Source: Podospora anserina (taxonomy: Eukaryota). From it: a DNA stretch of 64,000 bases. This document shows, one piece after another, positions 2,016-22,293 of this stretch. The stretch covers positions 3,658,001-3,722,000 of the forward strand of contig CM030334.1 in assembly GCA_017654855.1 (NCBI GenBank), read 5' to 3'. Made by a program: the position numbers and the translations under genes. A model generated the notes under the pieces. The model was not told the DNA's origin. It saw only the letters and a program-made list of their open reading frames with translations, and searched no databases. Every line of letters starts with the position of its first letter. The first letter of the stretch is position 1.

Positions 2016-2337
2016 AAGGTTTGGGTAAAGCTCGATTGTCCTTGTGACTACATGTACAGTACTAGGATGTGGCGACGGACATAATGCCGCAGACACTAGC
2101 CCCTGGGGTAAACCAAATAAATCAGGGAACAGCTCTTTTTGTTGTTGTCATTGACTCCACCTGTTCGAAGCTTGACCTCTCAGATGTTGTCCTCACTGAC
2201 CACCCCGCATCAACATGCATCAACGCCACCAACAAGGGTTTAATCTCCTGTGGTCTCATCACAGCGATGACACAACATTCCGCCTCTCACTCAATCAACA
2301 ACTTCACAACACTGAACACTCACGCCCTGTTCGAAAC

Positions 2338-3324
2338 ATGTCTGAAGCAAAGAACATCATCATCACCGGCGCCTCCGGCCTCGTCGGCCCGCTCCTGGCC
2401 TCCCGCCTCCTCAACTCCCCAGAATACCGCCTCGTCCTCACCGACCTCCACCCCCCCATCCTCCCCCCCAACGTCACCCACCCCTCCAACGCGACCCTCC
2501 TCCAAGGCGACATCACCTCCCCTGCCTTCATCACCACCCTCCTCACCGCCGCCCAGCCCCTCCACGCAATCTTCCTGTTCCACGGCATCATGTCCGCCGG
2601 CTCGGAAGAAGACTACGACCTCTCCCTCAAAGTAAACGTCGACTCGATCCGCCTCATCACCGACCAGCTCCGCCTCACCAATCCCGGCTGCCGCGTCATA
2701 TACGCCTCCTCCCAAGCGGTATTCGGACAGCCTCTACCCCAGGGAAAAATCACCGACGACGTGCTGCCCACGCCGGAAAGCACCTACGGCTGCCACAAGC
2801 TCATGACGGAGTCGTACCTCACCTCGCTGCACAGAAAGGGGTTTTTGGACGTGTTTATTGCTCGGTTTCCCACCATTAGTGTCAGGCCGGGGAGGCCGAC
2901 GGCTGCGGCGTCGAGCTTCCTGTCGGGGATTATAAGGGAGCCGATGAGGGGGGTGGAGTGTGTGGTCCCGATTGAGGACAGGGGTTTCAAGAGTTTTTTG
3001 GCTTCGCCGAGGACGATAGCGGAGAATTTGGTTAGGGTTTTGGGGTTAGGGAGTGGGTGTTTGCCTGTGCATAGGAGGGTGATTCAGTTTCCGGGGGTGA
3101 GTGTTTCTGTTCAGGAGATGATGGATGCGTTGGGGAAGTTTGGCGGGGAGGATAAGTTGGGGTTGGTGAAGGAGGTGCGGGATGAGGGGTTGGAAAGGAT
3201 TTTGAGGAGCTGGCCGACGGATTTTGACTTGAGCACGGCGGAGAGGTTGGGGTTGGTGGTTGATGAGGGGCCGGGGGCGGAGGGGATTGTGTGGGAGTAT
3301 GTGAGGAGTTTGGGGAAGGTGTAA
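2338..3324 (+). CDS. NAD-dependent epimerase/dehydratase (extended SDR, D-erythronate dehydrogenase-like)
   Basis: IIITGASGLVG Rossmann motif, YGCHK (YxxxK), RFPTISVRPGRPTAAASSFLSGIIREP. Confidence 0.9.
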   Translation: MSEAKNIIITGASGLVGPLLASRLLNSPEYRLVLTDLHPPILPPNVTHPSNATLLQGDITSPAFITTLLTAAQPLHAIFLFHGIMSAGSEEDYDLSLKVNVDSIRLITDQLRLTNPGCRVIYASSQAVFGQPLPQGKITDDVLPTPESTYGCHKLMTESYLTSLHRKGFLDVFIARFPTISVRPGRPTAAASSFLSGIIREPMRGVECVVPIEDRGFKSFLASPRTIAENLVRVLGLGSGCLPVHRRVIQFPGVSVSVQEMMDALGKFGGEDKLGLVKEVRDEGLERILRSWPTDFDLSTAERLGLVVDEGPGAEGIVWEYVRSLGKV

Positions 3325-4899: not shown

Positions 4900-7722
4900 A
4901 TGGCACTGACCATCACTTGCCATCCCCCACTGGGCGCCATCCACATCCTCGAGCCTAACCTCTCGCTCGTCTGTCTCAAAGCACAGCCACAAGGCTCGGT
5001 TCGATGACTAATATCGTCTCAAACTAGGTTCAATTCGTTGTTGGAGTCCCTCCCACCGTTAGCGACGTTAGGATCTGGCACAACTGCACGACGACTGGCG
5101 AATGGTCTGAATTAGGCCTCACCGAAGTGCGCATCACTCGTCACCTGGACACTTGCGAGAACCAAAATGTGTTGACAGCTCCTTAGTCCACAGCCTTGCC
5201 TCGACTTGATAATCTCCACGACCGCAAGTATTTCACAGGCGCAATCCTGACCCTTACTGAGGCATCCACGTGGATAGGCCTCTTCAAATTCACGGTCAAG
5301 CTTCGGGTCAGTAAAGATGCGCCATGGCTCTGGATCAAGGACATTGATGGGAGTGAAGATGGCGAGGTCGTGCTTCCTGCTACTCACACCCCAAGCACCA
5401 ATTTGTCAAGCTACCTGGACGATATCAGTAGAGATATCGTGGTAACCCCAAGGCAAGCCGTCACCAGCGCGGCAACGCAAACCGTGTGGGAATTAAAAGC
5501 CAGTACACCAGCTGCTCAGGGCCAAACCTGCGGTCGTGCATTTTACTCTCTAGGCAAAGCAATCGATTGCATTCGGTGGCTTGGTATTGTTCGCCACAAC
5601 GATGCTTGGTTTGGGCCGCGGCATGGCCGAGATATTTTTTTACTCAACGAGGGAGCTGTAATGCTTTCGTTTCTGAGGCGGGATGGGCTGCACGTTGTCA
5701 TCATAGCCATCAGCGGGATCGACAATCTGTTGACCACGCTTGTTTCAAACGAGAATGGACAGATTCTGATTTCGTCAAGGAACGATGGACCTGAGTCAGC
5801 TCATGCCCGTGTGTTAGTTGCTGTTGACAAGACATGCGAGGAAGCCATTGCTGCTGCTATGAGGCCAGTCAGGGAATTTGTTCGGGGCCATAGGAGCAGC
5901 ACTTTCGCTATGGGCCTACGAAATGCAGGCTCAGCCAGCGTTGGCGAAACAACAAGGCTTCAAGCATGGTATGACGGCTTTGCTTACTGCACCTGGAACG
6001 GGCTAGGACAATATCTCTCGCCAAGCAAGATTCTCGATGCGCTCACCAGCTTGGACAAGAAGGGAGTCAAGCTCACAACTCTTATCATTGATGACAACTG
6101 GCAGTCTGTTCAGCTTGAGCCTGGAAAATCCGACTTTTACAGGCAGTGGTCTGACTTTGAGGCAAACAAGGAGCATTTTCCTGGTGGCTTGAAGAGTCTC
6201 ATCACAGCTATCAGATCAGTGTCTCCCTATATTCAATTCATTGCCGTTTGGCATGGTATTTTTGGTCATTGGGGAGGCATTGCACCTAGTGGAAAAATAG
6301 CCAAGGTGTACGCAATGAGAACGTTCAAAAGGCGTGAAGGAATCTTTCTGGGCGGTGGGGACATGACGACAGTCGATAGGAGCGATACTGAGCGGCTGTT
6401 TGATGATTTTTACAGGTCAGTAACTATCTATGAGGCGACACAGCGTCACAGCTGATGAACAAGCAGGTTTCTGTCTGACGCAGGTGTGGACGCAGTCAAA
6501 GTCGACACGCAAAGTTTCCTAGACTACGCAGACCATGCCGACGACAGGCTCGCCTTGATCACAGCGTACCAGGACGCATGGAGGCTGGCATCCCTCAAAT
6601 ACTTTGGTGGTAGGGCCATCGCTTGTATGGCGCAGATACCACAAACGATGTACTACTCGTTCCTGCGAGAAGACCTTCCCAAGCCGATGGTGAGGACATC
6701 TGACGACTTCTTCCCGGATGACCCAAGGCAGGTCCCTCCATCTGATGGCGCTCAAAGAGGTATGCTGACTCCAAAACCAGCTCCCACTCCTGGCACATTT
6801 TCTGCAACGCCCACAACGCCCTTCTCATGCAGCATTTTGACGTCCTCCCAGACTGGGACATGTTCCAAACCAGCCATCAATACTCCCGCTTCCACGCCAC
6901 AGCACGATGTGTTTCCGGTGGTCCAATTTATATCACTGACACGCCGGGTGAGCACGACCTCGACCTGATCGAGCAAATGACTGCAAAAGCCCCAGACGGT
7001 AGACTCCTCGTGCTTCGAACAGAGAAGCTGGGGAGGACGGTGGGGATGTACACCGGGCACTCAGAGACTCAGTTCCTCCAGGTCAGAGCGGAGCATTACC
7101 GGGTCGTTATCACGGCAGTGTTTAATCTTGATAATGTGCCGCGAACAAAGCTAGTCTCGCTGAGTTACTGTGAGCCATCTCTAGCGGGAGATGAAGCGGG
7201 CTACTTATTCCGGGTGCACAGCTCTGGAAAACTTCTCAGACACGCTGATGGGAGTCTGGCCATCATGGAGCTTCACTTCGGGCCGCACGACTGTCACATC
7301 ATTACCAGATACCCAGTCCGCCGGTTTCAGCAGACTGATGTGGCTGTCTTGGGACTGTTAGGAAAGATGGCGGGGGCTGCTGCTGTGATGGCAACAACTT
7401 ATAAAGTTCTGCCAGAAACATCAGAAATCCAGGCAGATCTTGAGTTGAAGGCGCTGGGGAATCTTGGTGAGAAATGGATTCGTCCGTTGAAGCTACAAAA
7501 AGCTGACCCAAATTAACAGGCCTCTACGTGTCTGCCAACAGCCGCCCGCTCGTCGGTCCGGTGAAGGTGATTGTCGGCGGCGGCCCAATGGCCAAAGTCG
7601 AGCCTTTAGGATTGGACCCATTTATCCTCGAGTTTGACCTGGAAGGGCTGTGGCCGGGAGAGAACCGTTGTGGGAAGGGTAACTCACAGGTGTTAGTCAC
7701 AGTGATTGTGCCACTGCTTTAA
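4900..7722 (+). CDS. GH36 raffinose synthase / seed-imbibition (Sip1)-like alpha-galactosidase, multi-exon
   Basis: Motifs YCTWNGLG, LIIDDNWQS, VWHGIFGHWGG, VKVDTQ, RTSDDFFP, PDWDMFQT and SGGPIYITD across ORFs 5196..6455, 6486..6968, 6827..7516 and 7528..7722. Confidence 0.9.
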
Positions 7723-9362: not shown

Positions 9363-9470
9363 GTGCTGGTTTCTGTCGACGAGTCGCGCGATGTCGTGGA
9401 ACCAGTGACTAAGTGACGGACAATTGAGGGCTTCCCATTGGCCAACCAAAAAATCAATGCTTGAGGCACA
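9363..9470 (+). repeat. Dispersed direct repeat, copy 1 (copy 2 at ~14144-14233)
   Basis: Shared core ACGGACAATTGAGGGCTTCC(C)ATTGGCCAACCAAAAA(A/G)TCAATG(C/G)TTGAG(G/C)CACA plus upstream GTGCTxGTTTCTGTCxACxAGT. Confidence 0.85.
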
Positions 9471-9553
9471 ATATACCTTGAAAGATAGTAACAACGATAG
9501 TCAAAAGTACGTCAAATGATAGCGAAAGCGATTTCTATCATCGTTCAAGGCCC

Positions 9554-12500
9554 CTAAAATCCCGTTGTGCCCGCCGCTGTTACCTGATGAAGGCGTATTT
9601 CCTCTGGAGACCAACCCTCGCAACTGGGCAAGGCCGCTATGTGATGGTATATGTCATATTTGCCAGGCAGCCCAGGGGTATCAAACTTTGTAGCTACATA
9701 TCTGTAATTGATCGGAGGTGCTTTGCGATGGGGTAAAGGCATTGGTAACCCATCACAGTCAGTCAGCCTTCATTCTTGACAGCACCAAACCACAAAGATC
9801 AAATGCGACGCAATACTCAAATTCAGATAGCTACAGAAAAATTTTTAAGACAAAGGAAGAAGAAAACTAACTGCCTTGAGCCCCTCCAGTTTTGGCGGAA
9901 GGAGAGCCGAAAAAACCCGAACCTGATGCCTGCCCCGGCTTCGTACTATTCATAGCACCACCACTTTGGTTATTACTGCTGCCAAATATTCCTCCGGAAG
10001 GAAACGCAGCAGTAGGGGCATTGGAGAATGACGAAGGAGCGGGAGCCTTGGCGACTGATGTAAAGGCATTTGTGCCGGAGGGAGCAGAGAATAAAGACGC
10101 TGAGTTCGGAGTTGATGGATTACCAAACACTGAAGAGCCCTTGGGGCCAAAAAGCGAAGAAGCCGTTGGTGCAGGATCACTCGTTCCGAATAGCCCACCA
10201 GTGCCGGGCGTGGCTGGTTTAGTGCTAAATACCCCGGACGTGGATGGTGTGGTGGTGAATAACCCACCAGACCTGGGGGCGGGTGTGTTCTTCATGTCCG
10301 CGAAGAGTGAGCGGGGAGCTGGGGCTGAAGTAGAAACAGGAGCGGAAGATCCCGAAACACGTGGTGTACCAGTGCTTGTCGAAGAAGAGGAAGGTGTGCG
10401 GCCGAGTGTAGTGGTTGACTGTCGGCTCCCAGCAGTTGCTGTTCTCTCGGTTTCGATGCTTGGTATCGGAGCTGGGCTCTGGCTAGGTCCCCGCCTCAAA
10501 ACAAGGCCGGTCCCCCCAATTGCCATCCCGTTTCTGCTCGACGCAGAGAACGAAGGCAAGCCTCTTGGCTGGAACGCTCTGCACGCAGCATGTCCACTCT
10601 GGAGCTTGGTAAGTTGGACTTGCAGCTCTTCTCTCTCCTGCCTTACTGAACGTGATTCAGCGGCAACCTTTTCGACATCTTCATCTGTCATGTTAGGAAC
10701 CATGTCAGGATCGAGGATGGTTGGGAGGTGGCGCAGAAGACAGTTTTCCAGTCCGAGGACCACAACATTGTCAATGAAGATGTCAAGTGACCTCTGTAAG
10801 ACAGATCTCAGCGCAGTCCATTCCAAAGACCAAATATCTCCCGGGAAAACTCACGTCATAATAATTGGCCATGCTCTCAATGATTTTGTCTGTTCCAAAA
10901 TCACTAGACGGGGTTGCCTCTGAAGCTGCTTCCAACACAGCTCTCGACACATGTTCATGGGTCAACCCTTCCAGATTTGGATACACCTTCTCAAGTTGAC
11001 GGGCGGTTTGCTGAACTCGCCGCTCCCCCCCCCTCCGGCTTCGTGTGTTCTTGAGCAAGGGCATAGGATCGTACCCATTCATGTAGTGATACAGCAGTTC
11101 CTGAAGCTTGACACCTAGCAAAGACGCCTTTTCTTGAAAGAATGGGGCAACGTACTCTCTCAGGAGTGCCTGTGCCGTCTTGGGGTCTCTTCCGACGATA
11201 TGATCTATGAGCTTCTCGGTAAAGCCCTGACAAATTTCCGTGATCAGTTTGATATGACGTTCGGCGATGTCCTCCCAAGGCTGTGATTGATCCCGGAAGA
11301 GACGGAGCGTCAATCGATCATTGGGTGAGCCCGGAAACTCGGTGCCCTGGTTCTCAGAGGCCATGGCTTCCAACTCGCCCTTGAGATTTGCGAGCGAAAC
11401 GGTTGCTGGGTCTTCAAAAGGATAATGTTCAAGAAGCTGGTGAAGATGGGCTGCAAGCTCTGGCTCAGAACATTCATTTTCTTCGTTGTCAGATTCACCG
11501 TCATCAGAGTCCCTGTCCTGGTTATCGCCGTCCCAAAGAATCTTGCGTCGACTACCTTTGACCAACAAAACGTGTGCAAAGACTCTGTTGAGGTCCCTCA
11601 CCAAGGCGCGCAACTTCTTGATTCGAGCATCGGTGTATTCGGTCGAGTCTGGATCAGGATACAAACCGCCAAAGAAATCGTCAAGGTAGTTGCCCCTAAC
11701 TGCTTCGCCAGCAAGCTCACGGAAACGGGAACTGATCTTGGTGAGGTACGTTCTCATGGCCTGTGGTGTTGAACGTTGCTCGCCCAGTTCCTTGAGTCGA
11801 CTTTGACGTTGCTTGATCAAGTGTTCAATGTCATCGATGAGCTCTGGAAGTTTGCGCTGAATGTGTGCCAAGAGAACCTGGCTGAGCTTGTCCCTGAGAG
11901 CCTCAATGCCCCTGTCCTGAGCCTTGATTGTTGCCCACACTCCGTTTCGAAAGAAGTTCTTCTCGGCCTCATCACGTTCGCCATCTGTTGACGTGGTCTC
12001 CATATGAGTTCGGTTGCGTAGCACATGCCAGCCGAGTGCCAGTTTGTGAGAGCCTTCCTTGTTCTCCGCCAGACGCAAGTATTGGCCTTCGTTGTGGGAG
12101 CCCTGGTCAACCTTATCGGGCTTGGTGATGATTCCCAGGGTTCGCCCTCGGGTAGGATCGTGTTTTTTCGCTTCATTCAAAACCTTTTGGGCAGCCAGCT
12201 CACTTTGGGCTGAGACAACGGCGAGGATGATGCTGTTCTTCTGGCGCATATACTTTTCTGCGAGCCGATCGACCACAGCAACACCGCCGGCCTCTTGGTT
12301 CTCTGTCTCATTATGATAGAAACCGGGGAGGTCGACAAGCGTCAACTGTGGAACAACAGGGCCGGAAATTTCCACCCGGAGGACTTGTTCTGAGAATGTA
12401 CTTGATCCCGAGCCGACACCCATGACATCTTTGGCTTCCTCGATGATAGCAGGAAGTTCGTCGTTGTTGAGGCCGGTTCTGTCAAAGACATGATCGTCCA

Positions 12501-12795
12501 CATCGCCAGCATCATTCTGGATCTGGACGTTGACTTTCGTCTGGGAGGCTTGGCGAAGCACCAACTCAGTTGCAAAGCGCGTGCAGAGTCCGTCTTTGAT
12601 AGGAAAGCGGACACGAGAGATGGCCTCCAGGACGGAGCTTTTTCCGGATGATTGATCGCCAACAACGATGAGTTGAGGAAGTTGGACAAATTTTCCTAGG
12701 CCAAGTTTTCGAAGCTCGTCAATAGTGTCAAGAAGGGCGCGCTGCTCAGCGGCGAGCTGCTGCACTACTGCGAGATCTAGCTGAACAGCAGCCAT
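9554..12795 (-). CDS. Mx-like dynamin-family GTPase with FG-repeat tail and putative GLEBS-like last exon; predicted exons 12795-10855, 10793-9872, 9720-9554
   Basis: G1 LPQLIVVGDQSSGKSSVLE, G2 LCTRFATE, G3 LVDLPG, G4 TKPD. Intron GTGAGT(10854)..TTACAG(10794) restores the GED segment YYD/RSLDIFIDNV. A second intron GTTAGT(9871)..AAAG(9721) is in frame with ORF 9554..9742. The third exon is less certain than the first two. Confidence 0.9.
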
Positions 12796-13129
12796 GTTTG
12801 GAGTTGGTTAGGTGGTAGGCTTCTGGATACAGTTTTGGGGGAACCATGATGGATATTTGTATGGGTTGGCACAGTTCGACTGACCGCCCCGAAGAAGCTA
12901 ACCGCCGACCTGGCCAGGGTACTCTGCCGCGGGCTCACTTGGCTTGGTTCAGCTGAGCATTTTTAGGAAGCTCAAAGGCGGGCAGTGGTCATGGAAGCGG
13001 TTGTGACTCTGGGGTTGATAACCCAAATTGGAGGCCTTGCCAAGATTTTGACGATGGTTGGACCAGTCAACAGCCAGGCACTCTGTGACCAAACGTGCAG
13101 AGGAATGGTTTGCGTGCAGATGGCCCACA

Positions 13130-13830
13130 AAATGTTGGCCAAGAATGACCTCCTTCCAGACCAGTCGAGCCAGCAACTGGCACACGTCAGTGGATCCAAC
13201 GGCGACACGCTCCGCATACATGCTCGAAATCGACCCTGTTGTGTGTCTGCCACCGTCCCCATCTCTCCTTTCAAGCATCATCACCTTGTACCCCCATCCA
13301 AGATCATGTTCAGTCAGATCAGAGTAGCATGAACTCTCTTTCTGCCTGAAGCGCATGTTCATCCATCCAACCTGGTTGCAACTTGATGGTTCCAAGCTCC
13401 TATCATAGTACTTTCTGCGTTCAGCCTTCAAGGGTGGCTCAACAGCTCCATTCATGTCGTCATTGAGCCGCGCAAGGCGTTTGCATTCTGTCGTATCATG
13501 TCCCAGGCTCTGATACCAAAAACCCAACATCGATTTCGTATCCCTCTGCCAATACGTTCAATTTCCTGGCAATACCAGTTCCATATATATGACCAAGAGC
13601 CAACCCATGAGAACCAGGACCAGCTGGGCCCCACGGGTTGGCTGGTCATTTCTGAGAGGCGGCGAGTGTGAAGAGGTAGAGGACACCATAGCAGAAACCA
13701 GTCGAAATAGATGGTTGGCAGCCTGCGGTAGATATCAGTATTCAACTGCCGCTTGATCTGGCGTGCCACACCAGCAAAGGCGTTGTATACGTCTGCTTGC
13801 AGTGACAAGTCTCAGGTTAACCCTAACCCT
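13130..13830 (-). pseudogene. Truncated, frameshifted C-terminal region of a HET-domain (PF06985-type) protein
   Basis: DVYNAFAGV...LPTIYFDWFLLW...RR...PSWSWFSWVG, then YKVMMLE...AERVAVG in another frame. These motifs typically follow a HET domain. The HET core itself is absent. Confidence 0.6.
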
Positions 13831-14143
13831 CATCTCCCGGAAAGACAACAAACAGTCGAGGACTCAGTTGGAGTTTTTCGCAGACATGACAGAGCTTGTC
13901 GCCGGGCCGAGGCGTGACAGGCCCGGGACAAGGAGCATCTCCCGGTTGGCGTGCGGGCCTGGGTCTTGGTCGGAATCCACGGTCATTTCACTGCGGCCTT
14001 CGGATGCTGAGTTGGCGAGTCTTCTGACCGTGCTAGAAGCTGGGCAAAAAGAAAATCCATCATGGTGAGGACGGAGGACGCGAGAAAGCGGGGCGTAAAG
14101 AAAGCAGTAAATAGAGAGAAGCTGGGGTTCGTGTTAAGGGAGC

Positions 14144-14233
14144 AGTGCTTGTTTCTGTCCACAAGTTGCTGAAACCAGTAACGGACAATTGAGGGCTTCC
14201 ATTGGCCAACCAAAAAGTCAATGGTTGAGCCAC
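14144..14233 (+). repeat. Dispersed direct repeat, copy 2
   Basis: Near-identical to 9416-9470 over about 55 bp, with looser similarity upstream. Confidence 0.85.
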
Positions 14234-14587
14234 AGCTAACCCTAGGGATCTTCCCAAACTTAACCACTTGGGCTTTAACCCTGACAAGCCACGATGTTCA
14301 ATGTCAACCTGTCAGACCGGCCAAACCATCGCCCGTCAGTCACATAATGCGCCCTGCCAAGTCTCCCAACATCTGGAACCGAGTCCTGGTAATCTGCCTG
14401 CCGGCGTCAAAACAATATGGCGCAGCTGTTAAAAAGAGAGGCTTCGCCAAGACGGGATGGCAACATATAACATCTCTCATCGACAGTTCGACTGAGTGTG
14501 GAGGTCTTTGGCATACACTCCTGAGAACCTCCCCTAACTGACTCTTCTCCAAGCTAATACTCCAAGTCTTGCGGCATCCTTTTAATC

Positions 14588-15621
14588 ATGGCAAAGCGAT
14601 CCAAAACATCCTACTACAGTGTCGACCCCCCTTTCGTCTACGCTGCTAGCGCCATCGTCGAGGGCATCTTTACACTCTTTTTCCTGTGCACGTTTGGCTA
14701 CAGCGCCTTGCGAATCTCCAAAATACGCCCAATATGGCATTATTACGCCGCTACCATGTCCGCTTTGATCATGTAAATATTTCCCTTCACCGCTGACAAT
14801 ATTCAGGCAACTCACAATCAGTCATAATAGTGGCTACATTCTCCGCATAGCCTCCTTCTCCGTTTACGCTTACTACAACACACCTGAAGTCTATCTCTCC
14901 TTTGAAGACCGCTACCTTTTAATGCTCCTATCAGCAAAACGACTCGAACCCGTCGCTCGTCTATTCCGACACGTGGGCGCAGCTCTTTGTAGTGTTTTGC
15001 TTGTGGAATTTGGTCAACGCTACAGCTGGCCATCAAACGAGAGGGCACTTATTATCCGGGCCGGAAGGGCAGCCATGTGGACGCTGGCAGGGGTGGCAAC
15101 GGTGCTGGGCTTGACACATTGCATCATGGCGGAGAGAGAAATTAATCCTGACTTGACGGTTGTCGGACGCTTGGGAATGCCACGACTGGATGATGTGTTC
15201 AACGGCAGCAAGATAGCTTCTGTTGTAATCTCTGCAACACTACTCGTCCTTTTTGTCGGGGGGCTCACTATCCTGGGAATGGCAATGTACGCATCTTGTT
15301 CAAACCCATCGAAAGGAAGGAAGACCGGGCCAGTCATTCTCATAGAAGTAAGTATCAGTTCGTATGTCTTATTACAGCTGTGGGCCCTGGTGTTAATTAT
15401 GTCCACCGCAGATCCCCAGCCTGCTCCTTCTTGCCTCTGTGATTTTGGTAATCGTGAGAGGTTGGAATATGGCCGAAGTCTCTCTACTTCTACACCCTTA
15501 CCGTAGGGCTACCAGGGACATTGATTGGTGGTACTGGGCTGAACTTGCTCTAGATCGCTTTGGCACCTGGATGGTTCTTTTTGTTATTTATAGGGCTGGC
15601 AAAAAGGCCGGTGGCGGCTGA
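14588..15621 (+). CDS. Multi-pass membrane protein, multi-exon, function unknown
   Basis: Successive hydrophobic ORFs 14588..14776, 14922..15506 and 15439..15621 separated by GT..CTGAC..AG introns. Confidence 0.6.
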
Positions 15622-17281: not shown

Positions 17282-18179
17282 GCAGGGACAGACTTGCTAA
17301 TGCTGGTAGTAGGAGAGGGTGTGGATGAAGGGTGGAAAGGAAGAAGCGAGAGAAGTTTCCGAGGGCGAATTTTTAATCCAGAAATTCTTTTCCAAACTTT
17401 TGTGGCTTTCCAGTGTTCAAAACGCTATGTTGGGCGCTGGCAAAAAACTCAAACATCATGGTCTCCTCCACACAGTCACCTCCAACGGTGAAGCTTTCGC
17501 CACCGCAGGAACGGAACGCCAACATGCCACTGATCTGAACTCTGTTTTGTGCGATGGGGCACGGATTTTCTCTGATGGTGATGTCTGCGCAGATGGCAAC
17601 TTGTTTTACAAAGAGAAAAATGATGAAGACGAAAAAGAGAGAAATAAGATGAGGTCGTGTGTCGACACTTAGTTACCTTACCTAGGTATCTGGGCGCGAG
17701 ATGAAGCGTGGTGGTCGGTTTAAGGTTCGGCACGTGCCAGCCTCAAGGTAAGTATTGACTTGCGTTGCGCAGTGTCGGTTGATGTTGTCGACAGCGTGAC
17801 TCCTTCAGAAAAAGGGCAGCCCTCTTCACAATCATAATCATATTCATTGCCTACATCGCACTTACCTTGAGCAGAAGAGTTGAGGTTCGGAAGGTTCCAC
17901 CCTGAAACATGTGTCCACGGTGGACATGTTGCGTCTGGGAAGGCGCGAGTTAGGTAACTCAGCCGAGCAACAAACATCATCAAGGCATTTGGAAGCAGGT
18001 GCATCTGGTGGCCGCGGATAGGTGTCGCGAGACAAGTCACAATGCAATCAGCGTAACCACAACAGGGAAGGTGACTACCACCTCCCAGTGTCCATAAGAC
18101 ATTGTCTTTTCGTCTCCATTCCAGTACTTGCTGTCTTCCATGCTTTCAGAACGAAACAATCAGTTCCCAATCTGCCATC

Positions 18180-18961
18180 ATGCAATTCCCCAACAACGTC
18201 CTGGCTTTCGGTAGCCTCTTTGTCGCCGCTGGCTATGCTCAGGACACAGATACCTCCACCTCGGCAGTCGACACCACCCTCATAACCTCCGTCAGCATCG
18301 AGCTCTCCACCACAGGCACCACACTGTCCAGTGCCACGGATATCTACAGCGGCACTGTCACCGACGCCTTGGGCGATTCCACCGGCCTCATCAAACCTCG
18401 CCCCACCACCGAGGGCGGCGGCCCTCTCGACACAGTCTACGCCTGCGGAGACACCACCGTCATTGACCAGTTCAGCTACGGCTCTCCCCTAGTGAAGGAC
18501 TGCTGGGACGTCTACAACGGTCTGGACGGGAAAACCGACCCTTGGTATGCCGTCCGTGTGTTTGCTCCCAGCCAGCTCCACGTCACAATTTGTGTCTCGC
18601 AAGCTGACAAACACGTACTTTCTTTCCAAACAGGATCCTGGATCACATGTGGGAGCAGCGTGCTTTTGCGTCGTCGGGTACCTGTGTCATCGGCGCCCAG
18701 ATCGTTAGCCAGACCGACTATCCTTCGTATGTTGGCAGTGAGGACTTTCGCATCGCTATCAAGAAGTCGATTGAGCAGTTTGCCAAGAAGGATGACAAGA
18801 GCCAGGAGCTTGTCGGCACCAAGGGTTATATGCAATGCGGCACGTTTTTTCCGTGCTATTCCCTTGCCTGTCAGAGTATGGTATCTTGAGCTAACAACAT
18901 GGTCTTTCGACTTGCAGAGCCCTGGCATGCCACGGTTGAGTGGGGTATCTACTACAACTAA
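18180..18961 (+). CDS. Secreted Ecp2/Hce2 effector-like protein, three exons
   Basis: Signal peptide MQFPNNVLAFGSLFVAAGYA, S/T-rich linker, then CGDTT..SPLVKDC..GTCVIGA..VGSEDF..SIEQF..VGTKGYMQC..VEWGIY, which is the Hce2 pattern. Confidence 0.8.
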
Positions 18962-19177
18962 GCGGCACCTCCAATCTCCCCGGTTGATTTGAATTGTTTG
19001 AGTCATGGTTATTGCCTTTGAGATTTGTACGGATATTTGGCCATGAGCTTATAGAGTTATTGTTGTCATATCCGAAGTGGGGCAATTTGAAAGATGGAAA
19101 CCTCTTGAGAAACACCGTTATCGATACTTATGCTGATGCAAGTTGTGATGCTTTTTTGACTCCCCATATGCAACCGT

Positions 19178-21303: not shown

Positions 21304-22293
21304 TTTGGGTGTGTGGATGCGGAATATTAACTGTTGTTTGTGTCTGAAGTGAGGCCGTAGCAAGATCGAAGCTGTAGCAAAACTGAGTCAAAATTGATCA
21401 GCAGATGGATTGGTGGTCAAAAGTTGAGCTGGATAAGGTTTTGTAGTAATTCTTTCGAGGGTGGGGTCCCCAGGGCAGGTCCAAATAAGGTTGAGAGGGA
21501 AGAACGCCTCTCGAGAAAGTGTACCAGGAAAGAAAGAGGCTGTTGGGGCGGGCAATCAGCGGCGGACAAGCACCACATTAATACCTTGTTTTAAACACAA
21601 CAGGGTGGCGCTTTCGTGAGACGTGAAGTGTTCTTTTTTGGGTCAAAGAAACCATCAACTCCTGAAGCACTATCTGTTGTGGATGGAGAATGAGCATGTT
21701 GTGATAGGTGTATGCTGCAGCAAATATGATGATAACTGGTGAACATCATGGCCTCACCCTGGCTTGACCGAGATGGGGGGAGATGGGGTGGGCCCACACT
21801 GAGCACGTTTGAGCGAGTAGATGGCTCGTTAGACCCCTGTGGCCAACGGTTGTGATGTGAGCAGTACCAATGAATGCAGAACAACCGATGGGAGCTTGCA
21901 TGGAACCATGGCGTTTTCGTGTTCTGGGTTTCTGGATAGCAGCTGCAATGTGGTGCCTTCTTGGCGGGTTGCACAACTTCACACGGAAGCATCGAATGAA
22001 GTTGATGATTTGCAGTCAGCGTCGTGGACTCCGGTCGGGACTCAGGAGATGGAAGTCGGAAGTCGGGAGCTGGTCACTTGGCAGGAGTGCTTGGGTAAGG
22101 ACCCTGATGGCCGCCACGCCCTGCCAAGAGCAACTGATATCTCCACCGACCTCTATCTTGCTCAAAGCCACTCAGATGCATACGATCTTCTAGCTTGTGA
22201 ATACGGCGCACCTGACAGCCCTGTTATCATCGAAACCCTGTGTCTGAGCTGGAGTTTGTTCGCCATTGGGTGCTTGGAACGAGATTGATGAGG

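Follow-up and report, generated by a model that had tools for sequence, protein, structure and literature searches.

An Mx-like dynamin gene of Podospora anserina with an FG-like tail and a candidate Nup98-type GLEBS exon

Gene structure and the FG-like tail

A dynamin gene lies on the minus strand (12795–9554) of the window studied here, a stretch of 64,000 nucleotides (64 kb) from Podospora anserina contig CM030334.1 (assembly GCA_017654855.1, positions 3,658,001 to 3,722,000) that was covered in full by six-frame, open reading frame (ORF) and profile scans; all coordinates are window positions. Judged by homology, the gene encodes an Mx-like GTPase with a phenylalanine-rich tail, followed, behind a last intron with a stop codon in its splice donor, by an exon related to the GLEBS motif of the nucleoporin Nup98. 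The gene is PODANS_3_10470 of P. anserina, or a near-identical allele: its N-terminus is identical to that of PODANS_3_10470, and the 955-residue product obtained when the last intron is left unspliced differs from the protein of strain S mat+ (P0263, PODANS_3_10470) solely by S696P. Exon 1 (10855–12795, minus strand; 647 codons from the ATG at 12795) encodes the GTPase domain, the middle/stalk region and the start of the GED, and is separated from exon 2 by a 61-nucleotide intron within the GED (10794–10854, minus strand; GTGAGT..CAG) that is skipped in the RNA contigs of all four runs available. Exon 2 (9872–10793, minus strand) continues in frame with the remainder of the GED and an S/T/G/P/A-rich tail. 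The ORF at 10783–12795 (minus strand, 670 residues) matches Pfam Dynamin_N (E = 5.1e-32, 111.6 bits) and Dynamin_M (E = 7.5e-20, 71.7 bits), both above cut-off, and the ORF at 9867–10703 (ORF2) is the continuation of the dynamin ORF beyond intron 1, terminating at the TAG at 9869–9867.

Both Dynamin_N and Dynamin_M are present in all 53 orthologues scanned with Pfam. Neither of the two GED pieces created in the window by intron 1 matches Pfam GED at E ≤ 1, and this family is matched by 35 of the 53 full-length orthologues (E ≤ 0.01). In a PDB search with the dynamin, the best nine sequences were all Mx1/Mx2 (109–129 bits), with Drp1 at 91 bits, dynamin-1 at ~70 bits and Vps1 also below Mx1/Mx2. 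Since Mx1/Mx2 outscore Drp1, Vps1 and dynamin-1, the protein groups with the Mx proteins on these comparisons, and the label 'Mx-like' given to it in the original prediction is a fair one; 'Mx' is already the name on several database records of family members. A close relative, P0270 (975 residues, Logan), has an open intron 1 of 60 nucleotides, through which its contig reads with a gain of 20 residues in the GED. We rejected P0270 as an isoform, since it represents an in-frame read-through of intron 1 and an ORF-calling artefact of genomic DNA.

The tail that follows the GED comprises 231 residues (725–955), including 48 S, 33 G, 28 T, 27 P, 26 A and 14 F, with no Y or W and 19 charged residues, and contains the motifs RSLFA, GGLFT, SGVFS, GGLFG, SSLFG, SSVFG, ASLFS, GGIFG and SGFFG, so that the S/T/G/P-rich tail with spaced phenylalanine motifs originally described is present as claimed. 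Within it, the FG-like repeat region (9909–10304, minus strand; residues 811–942) carries 13 phenylalanines spaced ~10 residues apart over 132 residues, 5 of them as phenylalanine-glycine (FG) pairs (GLFG, SLFG, SVFG, GIFG and FFG) and 8 preceded by L, V or I. By hand count, 8 of the 9 L/V/I residues between positions 811 and 955 directly precede a phenylalanine, and we therefore regard the tail as a true repeat rather than mere composition. As in FG nucleoporins, the spacers are charge-poor, the phenylalanines are regularly spaced with small or aliphatic flanks, and phenylalanine is the only aromatic residue. Recurrent LFG/F columns are seen in the orthologue consensus, orthologues of 850–1040 residues in Sordariales and Xylariales have equally F-rich tails, and F-rich tails of 200–350 residues recur across the family. 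The tail appears FG-domain-like in its make-up, outside the curated Pfam family. Pfam scans of the window protein and of the 53 orthologues revealed no nucleoporin scaffold domain, and the protein is not classed as a nucleoporin.

The last intron and a Nup98-type terminal exon

Exon 2 ends at a phase-1 donor, GTTAGT (9866–9871, minus strand), with the in-frame stop TAG (9869–9867) inside it. The last intron inferred from this donor (9721–9871, minus strand) is 151 nucleotides long and is retained in all RNA contigs seen. Its branch-site motif CTGAC occurs twice in overlapping copies (9766–9762 and 9762–9758), and the first AG past CTGAC (9722–9721) is the putative acceptor. Joining 9872 to 9720 preserves the frame and would give a protein of 1009 residues, as against 955 for the unspliced form. 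Each of these signals stands in the DNA as originally predicted: the stop codon within the donor at 9871, CTGAC near 9760, the first downstream AG at 9721 and the in-frame joint. The terminal GLEBS-type exon (9554–9720, minus strand) consists of 54 full codons and a stop (9556–9554), and its frame (9557–9769, minus strand) is open for 71 codons. The motif core, Y-H-H-I-A-A ... W-S-P-E-E-I-R-L (9590–9649, minus strand), aligns with the EELRL core of the Nup98 GLEBS, with the glutamate pair encoded at 9604–9599. Stop-codon read-through was rejected as a route to the GLEBS in the window, where the two frames differ (intron of 151 nucleotides). At the metagenome loci L002/L003 and L007, which encode relatives, the GLEBS frame is the same as the FG-tail frame, with a single stop between them, and read-through is possible there.

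A hidden Markov model (HMM) of 11 orthologue C-termini, built without the window, ranked the frame at 9557–9769 (minus strand) first of 1777 six-frame segments (E = 5.6e-5, next 0.11). The same frame was ranked first of the 1777 by an HMM of 11 nucleoporin GLEBS segments (E = 9.8e-5, next 0.11), although these segments came from a 12-row profile that included the window's own row, a mild circularity that counts against the result. The second-best window matches, at 21594–22073 (minus strand) and 15194–15439 (plus strand), were dismissed as noise. When a 12-sequence profile of dynamin C-termini was searched against 1.84 billion representatives, 142 proteins matched at E ≤ 1e-3, of which 11 are long (1060–2152 residues) and FG-rich (33–63 FG) and were matched at residues ~50–350; the eight FG-rich matches that were scanned all have both Nucleoporin_FG and the Nup98-96 autopeptidase S59 domain, with Nup96 as well in three. 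The nucleoporin-segment profile also matches the human Nup98 GLEBS crystallised with Rae1 (4owr_B, E = 1.2e-7; 7byf_B, 3mmy_B and 7vpg_B), and an hhalign comparison of the dynamin-exon profile with the nucleoporin GLEBS profile gave a probability of 98.8% (E = 6e-17).

The window motif aligns without gaps with its orthologue counterpart F-Q-H-I-C-A ... Y-S-P-E-E-L-R-L, and in the alignment of the exon with the 11 orthologue C-termini I27, S37, E39 and E40 are invariant (12/12). The equivalent glutamates of the Nup98 GLEBS are described as forming conserved salt bridges with two arginines of Rae1/Gle2 (PMC3783196). The human Nup98 GLEBS string given in the original prediction matches that printed by the PDB search, the identities listed from it hold, and the proposed GLEBS likeness is borne out by both profile rankings and by hhalign. 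On these comparisons, the 54-codon frame downstream of the dynamin is a real Nup98-type GLEBS by homology.

Among the 142 profile matches (P0121–P0262, none of them in the window), the GLEBS-type motif was found to be widespread beyond nucleoporins. Dozens of small proteins have 2–5 tandem copies and no FG repeats; single or double copies occur on F-box (P0191), BTB (P0133) and ankyrin-repeat (P0226) proteins, on a protein with a UvrD-like helicase part (P0187), on a second, distant dynamin (P0128) and on a protein with a Deltex C-terminal domain (P0243), which matches Pfam Nup98_GLEBS with 61.5 bits.

Conservation and transcription of the terminal exon

Of the 120 relatives listed, 11 have the motif at their C-terminus, and each of these 11 belongs to the 74 with a length of 800 residues or more. 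These 11 models are annotated Xylariales/Amphisphaeriales genes; a twelfth regular-expression match (P0096) was false, lying inside the GED. Three full-length representatives with a GLEBS (P0134, P0169 and P0203) stem from NCBI genome annotation and not from RNA contigs, and P0039 (Logan, 937 residues) terminates in the FG tail. The C-terminal motifs of P0095, labelled as Lasiodiplodia mahajangana (Dothideomycetes), and of P0070 from Nemania sp. (Xylariales) are nearly identical, which may reflect mislabelling, contamination or transfer.

Relatives are also encoded by 80 metagenome loci, ten of which (L001, L002, L003, L006, L007, L015, L016, L020, L024 and L025) have a GLEBS frame downstream on the same strand. 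The ten make up the full set (10/10) of metagenome loci that reach 44% identity and extend over 1100 nucleotides downstream, and no GLEBS-like downstream frame was found in metagenome loci with 43% identity or less. L002 and L003 are 98.6% identical over the compared stretch and the matches of L024 and L025 are identical, which leaves ~8 independent cases. In every GLEBS locus the FG-tail frame ends just upstream of the GLEBS frame, which begins 0–60 nucleotides past the tail's stop in relatives. Between L015 and L024, nucleotide identity is 0.75–0.87 in most 60-nucleotide bins up to the GLEBS stop (0.43–0.63 in gap-rich bins) and 0.28–0.43 beyond it. Stop-containing donors like that of the window were inferred in L006 (GTTAGT) and L002/L003 (GTTAGC), and retention of the last intron leads to a stop within 1–3 codons in eight of the nine distinct loci (L001, with 52 codons, is the exception), compared with 7–57 codons to the stop on retention of intron 1 in these genes. 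The GLEBS frames of the closer relatives L001, L002, L003 and L006 score 13–25 bits against the profile, a range that includes the window, and L002 and L006 keep A-D-Y (A-D-Y-x-x-G-R) after the core, as in nucleoporins. The 11 annotated models and the 10 of 10 qualifying loci argue that the GLEBS exon is a hallmark of the clade; the original prediction had been staked on conservation in orthologues, and the exon is conserved.

Transcripts of the gene in P. anserina are represented by four contig sets from four studies, whose RNA origin is established through the intron 1 joint alone (CT..AC on the plus strand); since all four sets skip intron 1, the contigs represent complementary DNA from processed mRNA. 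Splicing of the last intron in P. anserina, as originally predicted, did not emerge from these contigs, and as far as contigs can tell, the prediction's own refuting condition of unspliced transcripts goes against it: two of the four sets keep the intron and cover the GLEBS exon (X1, colinear over 9555–10793, and X3, colinear over 9460–10793), and the other two end inside the inferred intron, ~50–60 nucleotides after the stop (X13 at 9817 and X14 at 9807). A separate low-depth contig spans 9441–9802, and there is a weak hint that a proximal 3' end or poly(A) site may lie within the intron at ~9807–9817. Contigs drop rare variants, so that a spliced minor isoform could have escaped them. Two positions set all four RNA runs apart from the window, 10649 (plus strand A>G, giving S696P as in S mat+) and 9894 (plus strand G>A, synonymous), and the window strain therefore differs from the strains whose RNA was sequenced.

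Elsewhere in the window, the plus strand carries an NAD-dependent epimerase/dehydratase (2200–3321), a raffinose-synthase-like gene in two frames (5187–7513) and, at 18075–18989, a weak match to Hce2 (necrosis-inducing factor) that falls just under the cut-off (24.5 versus 25 bits). The HET fragment that the original prediction placed next to the dynamin was not recovered, as no Pfam HET match was found in nine frames within 12949–15508 (E ≤ 1; one frame E ≤ 0.001).

Interpretation and relation to known systems

We interpret the locus as a two-isoform gene, with a main product of 955 residues that lacks the GLEBS and a minor or conditional product of 1009 residues that would carry it, a reading that we hold to be somewhat better than evenly probable because the stop-in-donor arrangement extends across the clade, the intron is retained in P. 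anserina mRNA and the exon has been kept. Its homologies identify the gene as a fungal Mx-like (MxF-type) dynamin with, in our reading, an N-terminal module acquired from a Nup98/Nup145N nucleoporin, here made up of [LVI]F[G/S/T] repeats and then a GLEBS that a phase-1 intron sets apart as a last exon. Capture is favoured over convergence because the closer relatives keep A-D-Y-x-x-G-R as nucleoporins do. Retention of the intron would yield the form seen in all RNA contigs, which ends just after the FG-like tail, and splicing would yield the GLEBS form. The tail, whose [LVI]F[G/S/T] repeats are regarded as cohesive, would allow entry into, or adhesion to, FG-repeat phases and transport receptors at the nuclear pore, and the GLEBS would dock the GTPase on the Gle2 propeller through its conserved glutamate pair, so that an oligomerising Mx-type GTPase would be positioned at the mRNA-export, cytoplasmic face of the pore. 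Intron retention would restrict the amount of free GLEBS, a limitation that would make sense because in human cells an excess of Nup98 GLEBS titrates RAE1, causes it to mislocalise and blocks the export of poly(A)+ RNA (PMC2133102, PMC3783196). That the protein would bind Gle2, reside at the pore or take part in defence is a proposal.

Animal Mx proteins (MX1/MxA, MX2/MxB) and fungal MxF proteins have the same architecture of GTPase, middle/stalk and GED as the window protein. To our knowledge, no animal Mx protein has an FG-repeat tail or a GLEBS. MxB reaches the pore via its N-terminal region; the proposed association with the pore parallels that of mammalian MxB, whereas the device in the window protein would be a copied nucleoporin module. 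The fungal MxF clades were described recently and called uncharacterised (Langley et al., PNAS 2025, PMC11789081), and in that paper, supplements aside, 'nucleoporin' occurs zero times and 'nuclear pore' is used for MxB, which acts there. A literature search, supplements aside, turned up no account of FG repeats or a GLEBS on any dynamin or Mx protein, and a search by gene name (Pa_3_10470) found no paper on the gene, in agreement with the earlier view of this architecture as uncharacterised. Both the GTPase family and the motif are known already; it is their combination that is undescribed.

The nearest counterpart of the module is found in Nup98/Nup116/Nup145N, in which a GLEBS embedded in GLFG repeats anchors Rae1/Gle2 (PMC2133102, PMC3783196; PDB 3mmy, 4owr, 7byf and 7vpg). 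Like Nup98, the window protein joins FG-type repeats to a profile-homologous GLEBS that includes the glutamate pair. Unlike Nup98, it has no autopeptidase, Nup96 part or pore-scaffold binding region, its GLEBS would sit at the extreme C-terminus and not between repeat blocks, its repeats are a mix of FG, FS and FT, the Pfam cut-offs for Nucleoporin_FG and Nup98_GLEBS are not reached, and neither Podospora nor most Xylariales retain the D-Y. Bub3 is bound by the GLEBS motifs of Bub1 and Mad3/BubR1, which are likewise short acidic-pair motifs and lie across the top of a Rae1-like WD40 propeller, as would the window motif type. No checkpoint kinase was identified among the inspected matches of the dynamin-exon profile, which retrieved Nup98-family proteins instead; Bub3 is a possible alternative partner of the window GLEBS. 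Retained last introns with early stops serve as isoform switches in fungi, and here retention likewise brings a stop within 1–3 codons and splicing would add a C-terminal peptide, although the switch is deduced here from conservation and contigs, with no spliced reads seen in P. anserina.

Several observations weigh against the two-isoform reading and the capture of a working nucleoporin module. In RNA, the joint 9872|9720 is present in none of the four contig sets, and the six annotated models of the Podospora species complex (949–955 residues) all end at the donor stop; the introns of the metagenome loci were inferred from signals alone. The 11 nucleoporin segments share, without exception, D-Y and basic residues after EELRL and an aromatic Y four residues before the S, a set that the window does not match in full, having H-Q for D-Y and C for that Y. 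Because D-Y and Y are lost and the exon scores ~19 bits, binding by the window exon may be weak or absent. No GLEBS chain was returned by PDB searches, whether the query was the exon by itself or the dynamin C-terminus profile, an ESM Atlas search with the exon gave no usable match, and Pfam PF21240 (Nup98_GLEBS) matched none of the 12 dynamin C-termini at E ≤ 10. The silence of PF21240 weighs little, because the model remains below its own cut-off in all six fungal Nup98-family proteins scanned (P0261, P0215, P0181, P0135, P0208 and P0236), matching weakly at the GLEBS site in three and missing the other three altogether; PF21240 is a poor test for fungal GLEBS. For the tail, Pfam Nucleoporin_FG reaches 19.9 bits (E = 1.4e-3) in the window against a cut-off of 32.2, and matches just 5 of the 53 orthologues at E ≤ 0.01.

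The main rival to the two-isoform reading, possible although on balance doubtful, is that the exon is a relic: the ancestral splice would have been lost in the P. anserina lineage, the protein would always end at the TAG at 9867, and the frame would survive as a remnant in a long 3' untranslated region. The unjoined contig sets, two of them colinear through the intron, the Podospora models that stop at the donor TAG, and the low score with loss of the nucleoporin-conserved D-Y and Y are all compatible with such a loss, as is a donor that departs from the usual fungal GTAAGT/GTGAGT. Yet the frame has stayed open, the donor, both branch sites and the first in-frame AG are intact, transcripts still span the entire exon, the closer relatives have scores both below and above that of the window, and a GTTAG donor also occurs in L002/L003 and L006, whose exon is well preserved. 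We consider it unlikely that the tail is generic disordered low-complexity sequence unrelated to the nuclear pore, with FG-like motifs, and here a GLEBS too, that have no transport function. Besides the poor Nucleoporin_FG matches, this idea draws on the fast evolution of the tail (by hand count, the P. comata protein differs at 21 of 231 tail residues versus 11 of 724 upstream) and on a search with the tail against longer proteins (residues 85–278 of ORF2), which gave two orthologues at E ≤ 10 and no nucleoporin; it is opposed by the strongly non-random arrangement of [LVI]F with phenylalanine as sole aromatic and by the recurrence of F-rich tails in the family. Furthermore, the tail is joined to a motif homologous to the FG-flanked one of Nup98, and a common origin of the whole module is therefore indicated. 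Far less probable is a separate small gene or downstream ORF of 62 codons (9742–9554) encoding a free GLEBS peptide, as eleven annotated models fuse the GLEBS to the dynamin, the GLEBS frame of relatives starts so close to the tail's stop that there is no room for a promoter, and the RNA contigs are continuous with the dynamin mRNA. An ATG at 9742 does open the frame, which is recorded as a predicted protein of 62 residues on 12 contigs, and many small proteins with nothing but GLEBS-like motifs exist; this ATG, however, lies within the inferred intron and is not a conserved feature, and a search for proteins of near length with the 62-residue ORF found only itself. Chance resemblance to GLEBS, which the shortness of the motif and the failure of single-sequence and Pfam searches might suggest, was rejected as having next to no probability, given that two profiles, neither of which contains the window, rank the frame first at E ~1e-4, that it is positioned exactly as the exon of the orthologues, and that hhalign supports the relationship.

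If the two-isoform reading with a captured module is extended to function, a Sordariomycete clade of Mx-like GTPases would have captured the FG and GLEBS module of Nup98 as a pore anchor or bait against parasites (retroelement particles, viruses) or as a platform guard, with the stop-in-donor intron as an isoform switch and the GLEBS on the F-box, BTB, Deltex-C, ankyrin and helicase proteins marking a wider Gle2-docking network; this wider scenario is speculative, and as a whole improbable at present. If it is true, an oligomerising GTPase of immune type would sit on Gle2 and in the FG phase, where it could intercept genetic parasites that have to use GLFG repeats or the Rae1-Nup98 platform as docking sites. 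If the last intron is regulated, a stop codon built into a splice donor would provide compact isoform control. Most annotated models of this dynamin family are probably without their last exon. GLEBS, usually ascribed to Nup98 and Bub1/BubR1, is on these findings a mobile short motif carried by many unrelated fungal-type proteins. For fungal Mx-like proteins, the tail provides a concrete candidate partner, Gle2/Rae1, and a candidate site of action, the nuclear pore.

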